A DNA stretch of 64,000 nucleotides from Saprospiraceae bacterium. Its GTDB lineage: Bacteria > Bacteroidota > Bacteroidia > Chitinophagales > Saprospiraceae. Under the pieces are notes generated by a model. The model had not been told where the DNA came from. It ran no database searches and saw nothing but the letters and a program-made list of their open reading frames with translations. Position numbers and translations under genes: made by a program. The stretch covers positions 364,743 to 428,742 of the forward strand of contig JAGNXB010000001.1 in NCBI GenBank assembly GCA_017985675.1, written 5' to 3'. Each line of letters opens with the position of its first letter. Position 1 is the stretch's first letter. Shown in pieces: positions 14,970 to 38,314 of this stretch.

Positions 14970-17798
14970 ATGACTGATATTACCTATTACGGTGAGCTAT
15001 TGTGGCCCGGCCAACTTGGACATCTGGCCATTTTGGCTTCATTTGTATTTGCATTACTAACTGCATTTGCATATGCCAAATCAGAAAAAAAGGCACAAGA
15101 CCATCAATGGTTAAGGCTTGGACGCATAGCCTTTTCGATACATGGAATAATGACTTTTATGGTGATAGGGTTATTATTTTACATAATGCTCAACAAGCAT
15201 TACGAGTATCAGTATGCTTGGGCTCACGTTTCTGATGATCTGGCCTTCAAATATATGTTTTCTGCATTTTGGGAAGATCAGGCTGGTAGTTTTTTACTTT
15301 GGGCGTTTTGGCACATACTATTGGGTTGGGTCCTTATCAAGGTTTCCGGCAAATGGGAAGCCCCGGTGATGGTTTCTTTATCTTTTGTGCAGGCCTTTAT
15401 CGTGTCTATGTTGTTGGGCATTTATTTGATACCGGGTAGTGACGCCATCAAGTTGGGCTTCAATCCCTTTGTATTATTGCGCGAAACTATGGATGCCCCC
15501 ATTTTCGCAAATGCTGATTATCTAAAACTTATTACAGGTAAGGGGCTAAACCCACTCCTCCAGAATTATTGGATGACGATACACCCCCCTACCCTTTTTC
15601 TGGGGTTTGCAAGTACTACGATCCCGTTTTGCTTTGCAATTGCTGCGCTTTGGCGGAGAGATTATAGAAGTTGGTTAAAACCCGTCTTGCCATGGGCATT
15701 ATTTAGTGGGTCAATTTTGGGTATAGGCATCCTTATGGGTGCAGCCTGGGCATATGAAGCACTGTCATTTGGAGGTTATTGGGCATGGGATCCTGTTGAA
15801 AACATGTCACTGGTACCTTGGCTGATTCTGATTGCAGGAATTCATACCAACCTGGTAGCAAAACAAAATGGACACTCCATCCGCGCTACCCTAATTTTTT
15901 ATGGTTTTTCTTTTCTGTTGGTATTGTTTTCTACATTTCTCACAAGGAGCGGCGTGTTACAAGACAGTTCGGTTCATGCATTTACAGAAATGGGCCTGGA
16001 GTGGCAATTAGTAGCATTCATTGTATTTTTTAGTGTTTGGTTTTTATGGCAATTCTTTCGGCAATATGCATCTATTGAAGTTAAGCAGGAAGAGGAATCC
16101 GTATCATCCAGGGAGTTTTGGATGTTCATAGGAAGTCTTGTTCTCCTATTTTCAGCAATTCTCATTACGTTTACCACTTCCATTCCGGTCTATAATAAGA
16201 TTGCCGACCTGTTGGGCTGGATGATCAGCCAGGATATGAGCGAATTTCATCGAAGTATGCCTCTTGATCCCATAGAACATTATAATAGATATCAATTTTG
16301 GATAGCGTTATTTATTGCAATCCTCAGCGGATTTGGCCAATATCTTCGATACAACATCTCACCTTCAAAGGATAAATGGAAAAGTCTGGGCATCCGGTTA
16401 GGCTTAATTTTATTGGGATCCGCATGTTTTACATGGTTGACCTGGTACTGGCTCCAATATTCTGGTTGGGCTTTTCATTTTTTAGTTGGAAGTGCCTGGT
16501 TTACAGTAATTGCGAATACGGACTACCTGATTTCATTTATTCGTGGCAACCTGTGTAGTGGGGCTTCCACATTATCACATATTGGTTTTGGACTTATGGT
16601 TATTGGTATTGTTGCTTCCGGTGTTAACAAGCAACACATATCCCAAAACCGGTTTGCGATGGAAGGCATTTTATCCGAGGATATAGTCAATAAAAACGTC
16701 CTATTATTCAAGGAGGCACCTTTATTAATCAACGGTTATAAAGTAACTTATCTGTCAGATACGTTAGTTGGGCTTATCCGAACCTATGAAATCAAATATG
16801 AGCGTCTCGGTGAAAGGGGTGAAATATTAGACTCCTTTAGACTATATCCCAACATACAATTTGATAAAGATTTTCAAAAGCAAGCTGCTTCAAATCCAAG
16901 CACAAAACGGTATTGGGCTAAGGATATTTTTTCTCATATAGCAGGGTTGCCTCCTGAACATGGAGATGCAGAGCGAGCCAAAGCCAAAGAGGACAGCCTT
17001 AAATACAAGTCATGGTTTATGATGCCGGGCAAGTCTGTTCAATCGGATCGTTTGAAATTGACACTTGATTCCTGGAGTAGTTCGGCGCAGCATCCGGATT
17101 ATGTACCTGAACTAAATGACATTGTGGTATCAGCGCATATTACTGTGCAAGAAACGGAGAGCGATACAAGTTATAGTCTATCGCCTTTTATTGTTTTGCG
17201 TGAAAACTTAGTCTACTCTTATCCGGACAAAAATGATCCTGTTGAGGTGAAAGTCAGGCTCAATGATGGTCTTTTTACCGGGTATCTGGTTCTTGATTCC
17301 CTTTTAAATTATGAGACAATTCAGCTACTCCAAGGTGAAACAAGGACCATTTCAGGTACTTCAATAAAACTTGAAGGTTTTGACAAAGAACCAGTTCATC
17401 CTCAGTATGTTAAAGAAGGCGAAGATATTGCTGTTGCTGCACGTCTACGAATTGCAGATGCAGATCAACCTGATTTTTCGGAGGTACAAGAGCCTGTTTT
17501 TTTAATCCGTCAGGGGCAAACCTACAATATAAAGACTTTTTCTCCGAGTTCAGGCATTCATATTCGTTTTATCAAGCTGGATCCTAACGATGGCAGGATC
17601 ACACTTTTAGTTGCCAAGCAACCAGGGTTTGAGGGAATGCCTGTTGAGATAGCTGAAAACTATAAACGAGAGGATTACATCGTCTTGGAAGCTATTATCT
17701 TTCCCGGCATCAATTTTTTCTGGTTAGGGAGCCTGTTTATGATGATTGGTCTTGGATTGGGGGCGTGGTATCGAAGGAAAGAAGCGCTCTCATCATGA
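14970..17798 (+). CDS. ccmF: Cytochrome c-type biogenesis protein CcmF-like (heme lyase) with long C-terminal extension
   Basis: Polytopic protein with the tryptophan-rich WWD motif (GGYWAWDPVENMSLVPW). At 942 aa it is about 300 aa longer than classical CcmF. The extra soluble region precedes a final TM helix. Confidence 0.8.
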   Translation: MTDITYYGELLWPGQLGHLAILASFVFALLTAFAYAKSEKKAQDHQWLRLGRIAFSIHGIMTFMVIGLLFYIMLNKHYEYQYAWAHVSDDLAFKYMFSAFWEDQAGSFLLWAFWHILLGWVLIKVSGKWEAPVMVSLSFVQAFIVSMLLGIYLIPGSDAIKLGFNPFVLLRETMDAPIFANADYLKLITGKGLNPLLQNYWMTIHPPTLFLGFASTTIPFCFAIAALWRRDYRSWLKPVLPWALFSGSILGIGILMGAAWAYEALSFGGYWAWDPVENMSLVPWLILIAGIHTNLVAKQNGHSIRATLIFYGFSFLLVLFSTFLTRSGVLQDSSVHAFTEMGLEWQLVAFIVFFSVWFLWQFFRQYASIEVKQEEESVSSREFWMFIGSLVLLFSAILITFTTSIPVYNKIADLLGWMISQDMSEFHRSMPLDPIEHYNRYQFWIALFIAILSGFGQYLRYNISPSKDKWKSLGIRLGLILLGSACFTWLTWYWLQYSGWAFHFLVGSAWFTVIANTDYLISFIRGNLCSGASTLSHIGFGLMVIGIVASGVNKQHISQNRFAMEGILSEDIVNKNVLLFKEAPLLINGYKVTYLSDTLVGLIRTYEIKYERLGERGEILDSFRLYPNIQFDKDFQKQAASNPSTKRYWAKDIFSHIAGLPPEHGDAERAKAKEDSLKYKSWFMMPGKSVQSDRLKLTLDSWSSSAQHPDYVPELNDIVVSAHITVQETESDTSYSLSPFIVLRENLVYSYPDKNDPVEVKVRLNDGLFTGYLVLDSLLNYETIQLLQGETRTISGTSIKLEGFDKEPVHPQYVKEGEDIAVAARLRIADADQPDFSEVQEPVFLIRQGQTYNIKTFSPSSGIHIRFIKLDPNDGRITLLVAKQPGFEGMPVEIAENYKREDYIVLEAIIFPGINFFWLGSLFMMIGLGLGAWYRRKEALSS

Positions 17799-30333: not shown

Positions 30334-31287
30334 TTATAGATTGAGAGATGCAAGAAGATCACCGTACTTGTCGGCGTTATCAGGTAGTAAAGTGACTATT
30401 GATCCAGATTGTAGTGAAGCTGCTAATCGAGTGGCTCCTGCAAGGTTGGCAGCAGCAGAAGGACTGAGCAACAACCCCTCATGGCGGGCTACAAATCGGA
30501 TGAGGTCATAAGCTTCCTCTGTTGATACGTGCGAGATGTCATTCGCCAAATGGGAATCATAAATGGCAGGCACTTTTGCCGTTTCCAAATCTTTCCAACC
30601 CTCTAATCCATGCATTGGGCCATCAGGTTGTAAGGCCAGCAGATGGATACTCTGTTTCATCTCTTTTAAATATCTTCCGGTACCAATAAATGATCCTGTC
30701 GTTCCAAGGCCACAAACAAAATGAGAGACTTCACCACCTGTTTGCCGAAATATTTCTCTGGACGTTCCTAAATAGTGAGATTTCCAGTTGTCATTATTGG
30801 CGTATTGATTGGCATAGAAATATTTGCCCGGGTGCTCCAAGTATATACCTGCTGCCATCTCCTGTGCGCCATCCGTACCTGAGAAGGGGTCCGTTAGTAT
30901 CACGTCAACTCCCAATGCTTTTAGAATGGATTTCCGCTCTTTGGATGCATTTTCTGGAAGACAAAGGGTTACCGGAATACCTAATGAAGCGGCTATGGCA
31001 CCAAAAGCAATACCGGTATTGCCACTTGATGCATCTAGTAATCGTTTGTCTTTAGATAGTTCGCCAGTAGTAATTGCTTGTTCAATGATTCGGAATGCAG
31101 CACGTGCTTTTACACTCCCTCCCAATTGATGCCATTCTAGTTTAGCATAGATAACGACACCCGTTTTTGATGAAAGGGAGTTAAAACGATGCATTGGTGT
31201 ATTACCTATAAGTTTCCCAACATTGAATAACTTTTTTGTAATGGAAGTGGAGAATTTAATAACCGGATTTTGTAGGATCGTTTCCAT
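30334..31287 (-). CDS. cysM: PLP-dependent cysteine synthase family protein (CysM-like)
   Basis: Motifs: PLP lysine in GGSVKARAA, SSGNTGIA, GLGTTGSFIG. It is the first gene of an operon with the JAMM hydrolase, the sulfur carrier and the E1-like enzyme. Confidence 0.85.
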   Translation of the reverse strand: METILQNPVIKFSTSITKKLFNVGKLIGNTPMHRFNSLSSKTGVVIYAKLEWHQLGGSVKARAAFRIIEQAITTGELSKDKRLLDASSGNTGIAFGAIAASLGIPVTLCLPENASKERKSILKALGVDVILTDPFSGTDGAQEMAAGIYLEHPGKYFYANQYANNDNWKSHYLGTSREIFRQTGGEVSHFVCGLGTTGSFIGTGRYLKEMKQSIHLLALQPDGPMHGLEGWKDLETAKVPAIYDSHLANDISHVSTEEAYDLIRFVARHEGLLLSPSAAANLAGATRLAASLQSGSIVTLLPDNADKYGDLLASLNL

Positions 31288-31298
31288 ATGTTGGTATT

Positions 31299-31328
31299 AA
31301 AAAGGGCCATTCGTTTGCTGAATGGCCC
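31299..31328 (-). terminator. Proximal attenuator terminator, ending 12 nt upstream of the cysM ATG
   Basis: The minus strand reads GGGCCATTC-agcaaac-GAATGGCCC followed by TTTTT. The stem is 9 bp perfect with a 7-nt loop. A terminator inside a 5-prime leader is the attenuator signature. Confidence 0.7.
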
Positions 31329-31367
31329 TTGTGTTCATTAGGAAAAAGAGGAAGTATAAAGGTTAAC

Positions 31368-31439
31368 TTACAGCGTTGAGGATGTTGATTGACAACAACA
31401 ACAGCAGGTGTAAACTGAACTAATAACCTTTATATTCAT
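31368..31439 (-). CDS. Proximal Cys-rich leader peptide (23 aa: MNIKVISSVYTCCCCCQSTSSTL)
   Basis: Hand translation of the minus strand: ATG at 31439, five consecutive Cys codons TGC TGT TGT TGT TGT at 31392-31406, TAA at 31368-31370. It is too short for the ORF track and lies in the cysM leader region. Confidence 0.6.
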   Translation of the reverse strand: MNIKVISSVYTCCCCCQSTSSTL

Positions 31440-31464
31440 TTGTTTATACTTTAATTTGGACCAT

Positions 31465-31494
31465 AAAAAAAGGCCACCCCGGTGTGGAATGGCC
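31465..31494 (-). terminator. Distal attenuator terminator
   Basis: The minus strand reads GGCCAttCC-acaccgg-GGTGGCC followed by TTTTTTT (5+2 bp stem with a 2-nt bulge, then U7). No upstream minus-strand gene needs terminating here, because the flanking gene is divergent. Confidence 0.6.
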
Positions 31495-31520
31495 ATTTTT
31501 GTTTTATTTCACATATGTAA

Positions 31521-31580
31521 TTACCATTCCATCGCAAGAGGGATACAACAGCAACACATTTGATTCATTTGCAATATCAT
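31521..31580 (-). CDS. Distal Cys-rich leader peptide (19 aa: MILQMNQMCCCCIPLAMEW)
   Basis: Hand translation: ATG at 31580 (in-frame alternatives at 31568 and 31559), four consecutive Cys codons TGT TGC TGT TGT at 31545-31556, TAA at 31521-31523. Confidence 0.55.
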   Translation of the reverse strand: MILQMNQMCCCCIPLAMEW

Positions 31581-31654
31581 AGTGCAATGTTAAGGGTATT
31601 GCAGTGGACTAGTCAACACCTGTCTCAAATCTCGAGTATATTTAAATTATAAGT

Positions 31655-31837
31655 ATGCGTAAAGTATTAAATAAAAATATATTAGGCACCGATAAAGATA
31701 TCCTAAAAAAGGGAGAAGACTATTATATTGAAGAGGGAAAAACAGTTTTTACGGCAATGTTTTTAAAAAAAAGAGGTAAATGCTGTAAAAGTGGTTGTAG
31801 ACATTGTCCATACCAGTGCGACAAAAAGGTCAAATAA
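31655..31837 (+). CDS. Small Cys-rich protein (DUF5522-like, CCxxGCRHCPY motif)
   Basis: 60 aa with a C-terminal KCCKSGCRHCPYQC. This resembles a small conserved Bacteroidota family. Confidence 0.55.
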   Translation: MRKVLNKNILGTDKDILKKGEDYYIEEGKTVFTAMFLKKRGKCCKSGCRHCPYQCDKKVK

Positions 31838-31846
31838 CCTCCTTCC

Positions 31847-32392
31847 TTATGGCATCCATTTGATTTCTTCAACATCTAGTTGGCGGGCTACTTCCCGGGA
31901 AAGTGTAAATAAGTAGTCAGATAATCTATTCAGATATTGGATAATCGTTGGATCCTGACTAGAAACTCTATCCAGGCTGACGATGCGCCTTTCCGCACGC
32001 CGGCAAACACATCTTGCTAAGTGGGCAGAAGAAATAGTAGGATGGCCTCCTGGCAAAATGAAATTTTTTAACGGTGGTAACTTTTCATCCCAATCATCCA
32101 TGGCTTGTTCAAATTGTTGAATCCGGAAACCAGGAAGTGCCGGAAGTTGAAGGTCTTTTTCCGGGTCCTTAGCCAAATGTGAACCGATGACAAATAGATC
32201 AGCCTGTATCAATCGTAAAAAGGATGTTATTGAATGGTCCGCAATAACATCAGCAAGGCCACCAATGATGGCATTGAGTTCATCAATTGTACCATAAGCT
32301 TCTATGCGCAGGTCATCCTTAGGGATTCGTTTTCCACCAAACAAGCCAGTTTCACCTTTGTCGCCGGTTTTGGTATAAATTTTAAAAGCCAT
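31847..32392 (-). CDS. ATP:cob(I)alamin adenosyltransferase, PduO type
   Basis: N-terminal IYTKTGDKGETGLFGG...RIEAYGTIDELN is the hallmark of the PduO/MMAB family. Confidence 0.85.
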   Translation of the reverse strand: MAFKIYTKTGDKGETGLFGGKRIPKDDLRIEAYGTIDELNAIIGGLADVIADHSITSFLRLIQADLFVIGSHLAKDPEKDLQLPALPGFRIQQFEQAMDDWDEKLPPLKNFILPGGHPTISSAHLARCVCRRAERRIVSLDRVSSQDPTIIQYLNRLSDYLFTLSREVARQLDVEEIKWMP

Positions 32393-35059: not shown

Positions 35060-38000
35060 ATGAGAAACCCTTTACTAAGACTTTTGATGTTAGTGCTTGC
35101 ACTAGGCGCATTTACCGAAAGTGCCATTGCTCAGGGCACAACAACGGCTTCCCTTAATGGTCAAATCATTGATCAGGCTGGAGAGTTATTGATAGGAGCT
35201 ACAGTTGTAGCTCTACATGAACCATCCGGCACATCTTATGGCACGGTGTCCAATGTCAATGGCTACTATCGTATGGCTAATCTCCGTGTGGGTGGACCTT
35301 ATCGCATTTCAGTGACTTACACCGGATACGGCGAAGTTGTCCTTGAAGGAGTAAATCTACGACTAGGTGAATCAAGGACATTAGATTTCAAACTGGATGA
35401 GTCTGCTACTGAATTAATGACCATTGAAATCATCGGAAAGGCTGGAACGGCAGGCCAGTCATCAGGGGCTAGTACCCAAATATCAACTGAGGCCATTGAA
35501 GCTATGCCTACCTTGAATCGGGACCTTGATGATTATGTGAAGCTTACACCACAAGCCGGTGGCTATGGTGACGGAACAGCATTTGCCGGCACCAATAACC
35601 GCTACAATGCCATTTATATTGACGGTGCGGTAAACAACGACGTTTTTGGTCTTTCCTCTTCAGGTACCAACGGTGGGCAGACGGGTATTTCCCCATTTTC
35701 TATTGATATTATTGATCAGATTCAAGTTGTATTATCTCCTTATGATGTTGCCTTGGGTGGTTTTGCCGGTGGTGGCATCAACGCAGTGACAAAATCAGGT
35801 ACCAACAATTTGGAGGGCACTGCTTACTACTTCATGCAAAATGAAAATTTGATTGGCGAAACCAACAAAACCCTTACTAATCGCACGGGAAGTCCTGCCT
35901 CGAAAGTGGCTGAATTCACAAAAAGTACTTACGGCGCTTCTCTGGGAGGTCCTATCATTCGCGACAGGCTTTTCTTTTTTGTCAATGCAGAGATTCAAAA
36001 AGACGAAACACCTGCGCCTTTTGATTTTGCTACCTACACGGGCAACTCAAGCCAGCAAGAGTTAGAAGAACTTCGTACTTTCCTTAATGAAAACTACGAA
36101 TATGATCCGGGTACATTTGGAAGTGTTTCCGATGAATTGGATGGTTTAAAATTGTTCGGTAAACTGGATTTCAATATCAATCGAAACCACCGTCTTACGC
36201 TGCGTCACAACTACACTAAAGCGGAGCAATTAGATCGCTCTGTGAGCTCTCCAAACACTATCAATTTTTCGAACAATGGGATTTTCTTCCCAAGTACGAC
36301 CAATTCAACCGCTTTAGAGTTAAATAGCCGGTTTGGCGATAAGATGTCCAATAATCTGATCCTCGGTTACACCACAGTAAATGATGATAGAGACCCTATC
36401 GGAGGTGACTTTCCTTTCCTTATTATTGAAGATGGACCATCTAAATTGATCCGAATTGGTTCAGAGGAGTTTTCAACCGCCAATGGACTTGAACAATCGA
36501 TTTTCACCATTACGGACAACTTTAAACTATACCGTGGTGCACATACCATTACAATTGGTACACATAACGAGTTTTATGATATCTACAATCTATTTATAGG
36601 ACAGAATTATGGAACCTATCGTTACACCAGTATAGATGCATTTACATCCGGTGCTACTGCCAAAGAATATGACCGAGCTTATTCATTGGTTGATAATTTG
36701 ACTGGTGATGGTTCTGCTGCTGCTGCTGACTTCAAAGCAATCCAGCTTGGTTTTTATTTGCAGGACGAATGGGCGATTTCCCCTAAGTTTACCCTGACTG
36801 GAGGTGTCCGTGTGGATGTGCCTATTCTGACAATTGATCCTGTTGAGGATACCTATTTTAATGAGACGGCCTTACCCAAAATGCAAGCGGCATATGCTAT
36901 TGCAAACGACATCGAAGCAGGTAAAGCCCCAGATGGCCAAATCATGGTGTCTCCACGGCTTGGTTTCAATTTTGATATCAATGGTGATAAAAAGAACGTC
37001 CTGCGTGGTGGTTTAGGCGTATTCACCAGTCGCATTCCTTTTGTTTGGCCGGGAGCAATGTACAACAACAATGGTCTGACGCTGGGACGTGTTGATGAAA
37101 CAAACGCTGGTGTGCCTATCACATTCAACCCTGATGTAAATGATCAGTACAAACACCCCAACTTCTCCTTGCCATCAGGTGATATCAACATCTTCACAAA
37201 GGATTTCAAATATCCACAGATTTTCCGTACTAATTTGGCATTTGATACTGAATTACCTGGTGGAATCACAGCAACATTTGAAGGCCTTTATTCAAAAACC
37301 CTCAATAATGTGCTTTATACTAACGTCAATTCGGAACCAATCGTTAAGAACAATTGGACCAATACTCCGGATGATCGTATTGTTTATACACGTAAGGCAA
37401 TTGACACTAAGTATACGTCCGTCTATGTGGGTTCTAATACAAATGAAGGTTATACCTACACCCTGACAGCCGCATTTGCAAAAAAGTTCAATTTTGGTCT
37501 TAATGCCACATTAGCTTATTCGTATGGTGATGCACAAGCTGTAAACGAAGGTACTTCTTCCCAAAACTCCTCCCAGTGGCGTGGCCAAATGACGCAGCGT
37601 GATGGCCGAAATGCCCCAGTTTTGGGTCGGTCTGATTTTGCCCTTGGGCATCGTGTCATTTCTTCATTGAGCTACAGACAAAACTGGACACGTGACAAAA
37701 ATGTGGCTACCACACTTACATTGTTTTATGATGGAATGACGGGCAGCCCATACTCCTACGTGATCGGCGGTAACAGTGCACGTAATATTAACAACGACCT
37801 TGGAAGTACAAGTTCTAATCGCGCGTTGGTATGGGTGCCAGCTGATGCCTCTGAAATCAATCTTGTACCTTACACAGTGAATAATGTTACCATTTCTGCT
37901 GAAGAACAATGGGAAAATCTGAATAACTTCATTGAAAATGATCCTTACCTCAGTGAAAATCGTGGTCAGTATGCGGATAAAAATTCAAACTGGATGCCGT

Positions 38001-38314
38001 ATACTTCATTCCTTGACTTGTCACTTCGTCAGGATTTCGGTGTCAATGTTGGAGGTAAAAACCACAAATTCCAGATTAGCTGGGATGTATTTAATCTAGC
38101 TAATTTGCTCAATAAGGAATGGGGCGTCAGGTATTCAATACCAGGCGACTTCAATAACTATTACCTCTACGAACTTGCTGGATTCGAAACTGATGGCACG
38201 ACGCCTCGTTTTAACTACCGTGGTGGTGATAATGTGGATAAAGATGCTTTAAATATCTCTGACAACGCATCCCGTTGGAAAATGCGTCTAGGACTGCGGT
38301 ATATATTCAATTAA
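35060..38314 (+). CDS. TonB-dependent outer membrane receptor with N-terminal carboxypeptidase-regulatory-like domain (Oar-like)
   Basis: Signal peptide, CarbopepD_reg-like segment (GQIIDQAGELLIGATVVAL...NGYYRMANLRVGGPYRISV), plug region, long beta-barrel, and a C-terminal aromatic end ...LGLRYIFN. No SusD-like partner is adjacent. Confidence 0.85.
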   Translation: MRNPLLRLLMLVLALGAFTESAIAQGTTTASLNGQIIDQAGELLIGATVVALHEPSGTSYGTVSNVNGYYRMANLRVGGPYRISVTYTGYGEVVLEGVNLRLGESRTLDFKLDESATELMTIEIIGKAGTAGQSSGASTQISTEAIEAMPTLNRDLDDYVKLTPQAGGYGDGTAFAGTNNRYNAIYIDGAVNNDVFGLSSSGTNGGQTGISPFSIDIIDQIQVVLSPYDVALGGFAGGGINAVTKSGTNNLEGTAYYFMQNENLIGETNKTLTNRTGSPASKVAEFTKSTYGASLGGPIIRDRLFFFVNAEIQKDETPAPFDFATYTGNSSQQELEELRTFLNENYEYDPGTFGSVSDELDGLKLFGKLDFNINRNHRLTLRHNYTKAEQLDRSVSSPNTINFSNNGIFFPSTTNSTALELNSRFGDKMSNNLILGYTTVNDDRDPIGGDFPFLIIEDGPSKLIRIGSEEFSTANGLEQSIFTITDNFKLYRGAHTITIGTHNEFYDIYNLFIGQNYGTYRYTSIDAFTSGATAKEYDRAYSLVDNLTGDGSAAAADFKAIQLGFYLQDEWAISPKFTLTGGVRVDVPILTIDPVEDTYFNETALPKMQAAYAIANDIEAGKAPDGQIMVSPRLGFNFDINGDKKNVLRGGLGVFTSRIPFVWPGAMYNNNGLTLGRVDETNAGVPITFNPDVNDQYKHPNFSLPSGDINIFTKDFKYPQIFRTNLAFDTELPGGITATFEGLYSKTLNNVLYTNVNSEPIVKNNWTNTPDDRIVYTRKAIDTKYTSVYVGSNTNEGYTYTLTAAFAKKFNFGLNATLAYSYGDAQAVNEGTSSQNSSQWRGQMTQRDGRNAPVLGRSDFALGHRVISSLSYRQNWTRDKNVATTLTLFYDGMTGSPYSYVIGGNSARNINNDLGSTSSNRALVWVPADASEINLVPYTVNNVTISAEEQWENLNNFIENDPYLSENRGQYADKNSNWMPYTSFLDLSLRQDFGVNVGGKNHKFQISWDVFNLANLLNKEWGVRYSIPGDFNNYYLYELAGFETDGTTPRFNYRGGDNVDKDALNISDNASRWKMRLGLRYIFN

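Follow-up and report, generated by a model that had tools for sequence, protein, structure and literature searches.

A putative cysteine-sensing transcription attenuator upstream of a cysM-like operon in a Saprospiraceae bacterium, and related leaders among the Bacteroidota

The classical transcription attenuators of Escherichia coli and Salmonella (trp, his, leu, thr and pheA; Rfam Trp_, His_, Leu_, Thr_ and Phe_leader) each have a small leader ORF in which consecutive codons specify the sensed amino acid, and are followed by the genes that make that amino acid. The leader RNA is divided into regions 1 to 4, of which 2 and 3 pair as an antiterminator and 3 and 4 as an intrinsic terminator, the two pairings being mutually exclusive. 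Region 2 lies at or beside the leader stop codon, where a terminating ribosome masks it, and the terminator is the more stable of the two structures, which makes the switch a kinetic one.

Leaders rich in Cys codons form the mycobacterial 'Cys ribulon' (Canestrari et al., 10.1101/834739) and the actinobacterial cys leaders (Seliverstov et al. 2005, PMC1262725), where a short and probably leaderless poly-Cys ORF lies 5′ of cysteine-metabolism operons and ribosome stalling on the Cys codons acts as the sensor. Terminators were not found in the actinobacterial leaders, and the authors named termination by Rho as a possible mechanism (PMC1262725), while the leaderless poly-Cys ORFs of mycobacteria act translationally (10.1101/834739). 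A third element, uORFC-8-2, is located 5′ of cysS in Rhodobacterales and combines a Cys-codon uORF with a stem and a U run; it was read as Cys-tRNA(Cys)-responsive attenuation (Brewer et al. 2021, PMC8632094). Two attenuators that each depend on a short ORF and follow one another on a single leader RNA are described for the Salmonella mgtCBR leader (PMC3641672). In the open-access papers and preprints that were searched, Cys leaders were found only for Actinobacteria and for alpha-proteobacterial cysS, and none for Bacteroidota.

The DNA analysed here is a window of 64,000 nucleotides from a Saprospiraceae bacterium. The 330-nt gap 5′ of a cysM-like gene (31287-30334, minus strand) was read on the minus strand and contained two similar units in series, a distal and a proximal one. 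The distal unit contained the following features:

31616-31585, minus strand: candidate promoter of Bacteroidota type, TTGAC (31616-31612), a 19-nt spacer and TAACATTG (31592-31585)
31580-31521, minus strand: distal leader ORF encoding MILQMNQMCCCCIPLAMEW, 19 codons followed by UAA
31556-31545, minus strand: Cys-codon run UGU UGC UGU UGU, four codons, the proposed stall site when Cys-tRNA(Cys) is scarce
31531-31523, minus strand: region 2, candidate 5′ antiterminator strand, made up of UGGAAUGG and the first base (U) of the stop codon
31493-31485, minus strand: region 3, candidate 3′ antiterminator strand, GCCAUUCCA, comprising the 8 nt of the terminator 5′ arm nearest the loop and the first base of the loop
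31494-31465, minus strand: distal intrinsic terminator found by terminator scan, a 9-bp stem of GGCCAUUCC (31494-31486) and GGGGUGGCC (31480-31472) with loop ACACC, then U7 (31471-31465)
31559-31515, minus strand: predicted 1:2 'protector' hairpin, formed by the Cys codons and UAUC with GAUG/AAUGGUAA/UACAU, which sequesters the octamer UGGAAUGG

The leader ORF starts at the upstream ATG at 31580 and reads ATG ATA TTG CAA ATG AAT CAA ATG TGT TGC TGT TGT ATC CCT CTT GCG ATG GAA TGG TAA, with the stop codon at 31523-31521 and a 26-nt A-rich spacer between the ORF and the terminator hairpin. This first ATG keeps a conserved position with respect to the promoter box. Because the TAACATTG box ends only 4 nt before the ATG, a leaderless or almost leaderless mRNA is probable, with a transcription start that is placed from the promoter layout. 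The same arrangement of TTGAC-N19-TAACATTG-N4-ATG was also found in five related loci (L003, L005, L010, L015 and L020), while the group of L036 has an analogous TAnnATTG box 9 nt 5′ of the ATG. Overall, 20 related distal units retain a TTG...TAnnATTG promoter with the leader ATG 4-9 nt further on.

Two other Cys-rich features of the window were noted. A divergent ORF of 60 amino acids (31655-31837, plus strand) is Cys-rich, matches DUF5522 (E = 5e-19) and is placed between the attenuator promoter and an upstream cob(I)alamin adenosyltransferase gene (31847-32392, minus strand). Two further runs of four TGY codons occur at 17429 and 36715, both on the plus strand; these were rejected as leaders and are incidental, since each lies within a long ORF (14970-17798 and 35060-38314, respectively) in another reading frame.

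Downstream of the distal unit are the second leader and an operon of four genes that were assigned by Pfam matches:

31439-31302, minus strand: proximal Cys attenuator, with leader MNIKVISSVYTCCCCCQSTSSTL and its stop codon at 31439-31368, Cys run at 31406-31392 and terminator at 31330-31302
31287-28465, minus strand: downstream operon of four genes
31287-30334, minus strand: cysM-like PLP enzyme (Pfam PALP)
30331-29915, minus strand: JAB/Mec+-like peptidase (Pfam Prok-JAB)
29902-29594, minus strand: ThiS/CysO-like sulfur carrier (Pfam ThiS)
29637-28465, minus strand: MoeZ-like protein with ThiF and rhodanese domains (Pfam ThiF and Rhodanese)

We take this cysM-mec-cysO-moeZ-like set to be the CysO-thiocarboxylate route to cysteine that was described in Mycobacterium tuberculosis; the CysM/CysO/Mec+ route is in use in mycobacteria also. 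As the downstream genes form a cysteine-synthesis set, a sensor made of Cys codons is cognate to them.

An earlier, sequence-only reading of the distal unit had proposed that an octamer near the end of the leader is complementary to the 5′ arm of the terminator and serves as an antiterminator. The minus strand bears out that the leader ends in GCG AUG GAA UGG UAA, and that UGGAAUGG (31531-31524) is the exact Watson-Crick reverse complement of CCAUUCCA (31492-31485). The complement was said to be most of the terminator 5′ arm, and CCAUUCC indeed makes up 7 of the 9 nt of that arm, the final A being the first base of the loop. The octamer had also been described as overlapping the leader stop codon, which needs correction: it adjoins the UAA, and reaches the stop codon only through an extra wobble pair, U31523:G31493, that lengthens the octamer helix to 9 bp. 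The helix between regions 2 and 3 precludes the terminator stem, so the two pairings are mutually exclusive as proposed. The spacing of 13 nt holds as well, since the last Cys codon (31547-31545) is followed by 31544-31532 and then by the octamer. When ribosomes were represented by masks from P-12 to P+15, an assumed footprint whose size was taken from general knowledge, the octamer was free with the ribosome on any of the four Cys codons and covered with the UAA in the A site, a geometry that fits the classical model.

The energies of the alternative folds were compared, as the sequence-only reading had suggested. The terminator gave −14.6 kcal/mol for its core and −17.0 kcal/mol with flanking A/U pairs. 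For the antiterminator, the 9-bp helix closing the spacer gave −10.8 kcal/mol, or −13.1 kcal/mol (z = −2.4) when a small hairpin inside it was included, values that are not negligible beside those of the terminator. Moreover the helix occupies the loop-proximal bases at which the terminator must nucleate. The predicted 1:2 hairpin, which the sequence-only reading had not mentioned, had an energy of −14.2 kcal/mol (z = −3.06; equal stability in 1 of 200 shuffled sequences) and would hold the octamer when the Cys codons carry no ribosome, giving the distal unit a full layout of 1:2, 2:3 and 3:4 pairings. In a duplex test across the family, such a hairpin reached p ≤ 0.05 in 6 of 96 units, which is the level of chance, and we do not claim it as conserved.

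Folds were also computed with ribosome masks. For a ribosome stalled at either end of the Cys run (first and last codon, the positions that were folded), the antiterminator was the dominant fold of nascent RNA lacking the 3′ arm of the terminator, with a probability of 0.98. With the ribosome at the UAA or absent the terminator had a probability of 0.997. On the complete transcript the terminator always won (P between 0.96 and 0.997), including with a stalled ribosome. A purely thermodynamic switch was rejected on this result; since the terminator is favoured at equilibrium, the switch must be kinetic, as in the classical systems. The 2:3 pairing of the E. coli trp attenuator is likewise weaker than 3:4. 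The barrier to refolding from antiterminator to terminator was approximately 11.5 kcal/mol as estimated by findpath, and we infer that the antiterminator persists kinetically, a property on which the model depends. The equilibrium fold of the ribosome-free nascent transcript also held the antiterminator (P = 0.89), so that termination by default relies on the order of folding.

From these properties, the octamer probably serves as region 2 of a four-region attenuator of the classical kind, in which a ribosome controls transcription in response to charged tRNA(Cys). The attenuator would most likely turn on the cysteine-synthesis operon when cysteine is short. In the model, transcription would begin a few bases 5′ of the leader ATG and a ribosome would translate the 19 codons of MILQMNQMCCCCIPLAMEW. 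With plentiful cysteine the ribosome would reach the UAA and cover UGGAAUGG(U), allowing the terminator GGCCAUUCC/GGGGUGGCC and U7 to form, and transcription would not reach the second attenuator or the cysM-mec-cysO-moeZ-like operon. With scarce cysteine the ribosome would stall on the UGU/UGC run, where its presumed footprint would break the 1:2 hairpin and end at least 3 nt short of the octamer, which could then pair with GCCAUUCCA once that segment emerged from the polymerase. The resulting 9-bp helix would tie up the 5′ arm on its loop side and prevent nucleation of the terminator during the brief transit of the U tract, leading to read-through. Where no ribosome is present, the 1:2 hairpin would hold the octamer and termination would be the default.

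When compared with the known systems, the distal unit has each testable defining feature of the classical attenuators except that the 1:2 hairpin is a prediction for this one sequence, with no support beyond it. It differs from the classical proteobacterial families in that it is predicted to sense cysteine, an amino acid that those families do not cover. Further differences are its Bacteroidota host, the promoter of TTG/TAnnTTTG type, the probably leaderless leader ORF and the presence of two attenuators for the same amino acid in series. A scan of 31000-32000 against Rfam 15 (E ≤ 10) returned only sub-threshold, terminator-driven hits to Phe_leader, Thr_leader and MicC; the best scores were 21.1 bits for Phe_leader and 17.6 bits for Thr_leader, each with a gathering threshold of 55, and it was mainly the terminator that was matched. 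The distal unit therefore belongs to no described Rfam family, and because nothing in Rfam matched it, it has no sequence relationship to uORFC-8-2. That element also differs in having two Cys codons within its first stem, in controlling a tRNA synthetase gene (cysS) and in its alpha-proteobacterial host. The mycobacterial and actinobacterial leaders share with the distal unit the short poly-Cys ORF, its probably leaderless nature, its place 5′ of cysteine-metabolism genes and the sensor, which in the distal unit would likewise be ribosome stalling on Cys codons. Unlike the mycobacterial elements, which lack an intrinsic terminator (PMC1262725), the distal unit has a canonical terminator together with an antiterminator. 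It is also unlike the translational mycobacterial class in that the next element lies 26 nt past the U run, and a helix that sequesters a ribosome binding site is not involved.

The occurrence of such leaders elsewhere was determined with the CysM protein as query, which gave 80 genomic and 80 metagenomic loci, all from Bacteroidota and with an identity of at most 61%. Near-orthologous leaders were not found in these genome and metagenome scans, for which reason covariation was taken from relatives at the family level. Short ORFs with runs of 3-9 Cys codons were present 5′ of the cysM homologues in 63/80 and 69/80 loci, respectively. At least one unit made of a Cys leader and a terminator was found in 107 of the 161 cysM loci (the window counted), the terminator being approximately 20-47 nt past the leader. 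After removal of redundancy 118 units were retained, all 5′ of cysM homologues.

Across the 118 units the run of 3-9 Cys codons was the one invariant feature of the leader peptide, the rest of which was not conserved. The distance from the Cys run to the start of the antiterminator strand was in most cases 9-13 or 19 nt, spacings that are compatible with the footprint of a stalled ribosome. Both the invariance of the run, linked as it is to cysteine-synthesis genes, and the clustering of the spacings argue against an explanation in which the pairing is functional and the Cys run has a minor role, the signal being the general status of translation (leaderless initiation or ribosome availability) or the switch being assisted by Rho or another protein. 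A leaderless-type layout does make initiation a possible point of control, and a second set of loci indicates that other mechanisms exist in the family. In these loci, of Balneolaceae/Fodinibius type (L056, L066, L070, L078, L096, L104, L106, L125, L127, L131, L134-L136, L139, L142 and L145), no intrinsic terminator was detected downstream and the leaders, which have CCCCCCS or CCCCCCR before the stop codon, finish with the Cys run or one residue beyond it; they probably use a different mechanism, either translational or Rho-dependent. Weighing these points, we regard this explanation of the distal unit as improbable, and a stall on the Cys codons as the better account of it.

The next alternative is that the terminator is real and constitutive or leaky, and that the complementarity at the leader end has no function, having arisen by chance or from purine-rich tails facing pyrimidine-rich arms. 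In its favour the helix is short (8-9 bp), closes a loop of 29-31 nt and loses to the terminator at equilibrium, and a CCUUUCC-like composition is common to many of the related terminators. Mononucleotide shuffling, which preserves composition, was applied to the 47-nt segment that separates the Cys run from the distal terminator; a perfect run of at least 8 against the arm arose in 55 of 100,000 shuffles (P = 5.5e-4). The duplex energy of −12.1 to −14.0 kcal/mol, compared with a shuffled mean of about −4.9 kcal/mol, was equalled in none of 300 shuffles. The same segment paired best with its own arm, beating all 100 foreign terminator arms taken from related but dissimilar units.

The family statistics are similarly difficult to reconcile with functionless pairing. 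The leader tail, defined as the segment of the leader after the Cys run, was complementary at p ≤ 0.05 to the 5′ arm of the terminator, taken together with the first base of the loop, in 96 of the 118 units, with a median duplex energy of −12.7 kcal/mol compared to −6.6 kcal/mol for shuffled sequences. With the arm alone and no loop base the number of significant units was 77/118, against 13/118 for the 3′ arm, which served as negative control. The terminator arms vary by lineage (GGCCAUUCC, GCCUUUCC, CCUCACC, GCUCCACC and GCCCUUCGG) and the leader tails follow them; in 36% of units the tail paired better with the arm of its own unit than with 95% or more of the foreign arms.

Conservation and covariation of the two strands, which the sequence-only reading had named as a further check, were examined in 12 distal units with the geometry of the window, aligned in register. 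The strand was fixed at positions −8 to +1 relative to the stop codon and 95% of the antiterminator cells were paired, while controls with slid partners reached at most 63%. There were two compensatory pairs, one an A:U to U:A exchange (7 versus 5 sequences) and the other a change from A:U to G:C in L020, together with G:U intermediates, and the covariation score was matched by 1 of 500 shuffles. The terminator stem was 100% paired in the 12 units, with 4 covarying pairs. The covariation of the antiterminator amounts to few independent events, namely one A:U/U:A exchange at clade level, one change to G:C and, in addition, some G:U wobbles, and for this reason the alignment is supporting rather than decisive and the family-wide statistics weigh more. 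Taken with the shuffles and the 3′ arm control, the compensatory changes and the fixed register to the stop codon make functionless complementarity very unlikely. Those refutation tests of the sequence-only reading that could be run by computation, including the energy of the alternative helix and the conservation of the complementarity, all favoured it, and the reading is supported.

Several peptide motifs recur at the leader ends, EW-stop, ER-stop and GW-stop among them and RKG in leaders of proximal type, and are explained by the RNA pairing, as they correspond to GAAUGG, GAAAGG and CGGAAAGGC. The RKG, WKG or GKG found near the ends of leaders of proximal type (e.g. L024, L038, L041, L046, L068 and L069) is encoded by (C/U)GGAAAGGC. 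The terminator arm GCCUUUCC(G), which is a common one, is the complement of this sequence, and the peptide's apparent conservation is therefore driven by the RNA. The distal unit could instead be mainly an independent small gene, for a trans-acting sRNA comparable to rnTrpL of Sinorhizobium or for a Cys-rich micropeptide, with hairpins that serve stability or termination only. The unit does have its own conserved promoter and a strong terminator, and for trpL it is documented that products of an attenuator can act in trans (PMC7298713, PMC7968998). The peptides are unconserved outside the Cys run, their recurrent EW-stop, ER-stop and RKG track the RNA pairing, and the unit is always directly 5′ of cysM-type operons, all of which gives the small-gene explanation very little credence; a trans role would in any case supplement attenuation in cis and not replace it. 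The proposal that the inverted repeat is a DNA operator for a protein was rejected because one of its arms is the terminator stem, and it is also contradicted by an arm spacing of 21-41 nt among relatives, a fixed stop-codon register and the tolerance of G:U pairs.

The attenuator reading applies to the distal unit of the window, and the proximal unit was found to be organised differently. An antiterminator of the distal type was sought in the proximal unit of the window and none was found, the best duplex having −2.8 kcal/mol (p = 0.9). Folding instead gave a long-range helix of 14 bp, between 31437-31424 and 31365-31351, that brackets the leader ORF, pairing its start with the sequence just past its stop codon. 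With no comparable antiterminator in the proximal unit, the net regulation of the operon is only partly explained. Tandem units, each with a Cys leader and a terminator and 150-210 nt apart, were found in 22 of the 107 loci, in a Saprospiraceae/Lewinellaceae-like group that includes the window (others are L005, L010, L015, L020, L036, L040, L042, L051, L067, L085 and L088). At these loci the distal leaders are short and have the strand at the stop codon, and the proximal leaders are longer and have it inside the ORF. The arrangement in series resembles that of the mgtCBR leader, whose ORFs sense two different signals, ATP and proline. Both units of the window carry Cys runs, and unlike in mgtCBR their arrangement in series would sharpen or deepen a single response.

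For the annotation of this genome, the analysis gives the sequence-only reading good support and adds a previously unannotated leader of 120 nt with a complete predicted attenuator switch and a cysteine-biosynthesis operon downstream. The mechanism is a textbook one and the conceptual advance is in that respect modest. The chances appear about even that the distal unit represents a large and so far uncatalogued class of transcription attenuators that sense cysteine through a leader peptide and are spread across the Bacteroidota, with units at 107 of the 161 cysM-type loci sampled. Members of this class would have probably leaderless leader ORFs with the antiterminator strand inside or at the end of the ORF. 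Among classical attenuators that work through a terminator, it would be the first class for the biosynthesis of cysteine, and would regulate the CysO-thiocarboxylate pathway outside the Actinobacteria. If this is true, the EW-stop, ER-stop and RKG motifs are dictated by RNA pairing, and the tandem Cys attenuators of the Saprospiraceae/Lewinellaceae-like group would multiply the response. The 118 non-redundant units, to which no current Rfam family corresponds, could seed an RNA family. Mycobacteria control genes of the same pathway by poly-Cys leaders that act translationally, and the Bacteroidota leaders would then be a convergent solution. To our knowledge little is known of the regulation of amino-acid synthesis in the Bacteroidota, a phylum without Shine-Dalgarno-led initiation, and a widespread Cys attenuator with near-leaderless leaders would be a tractable case for studying the coupling of transcription and translation in these bacteria.
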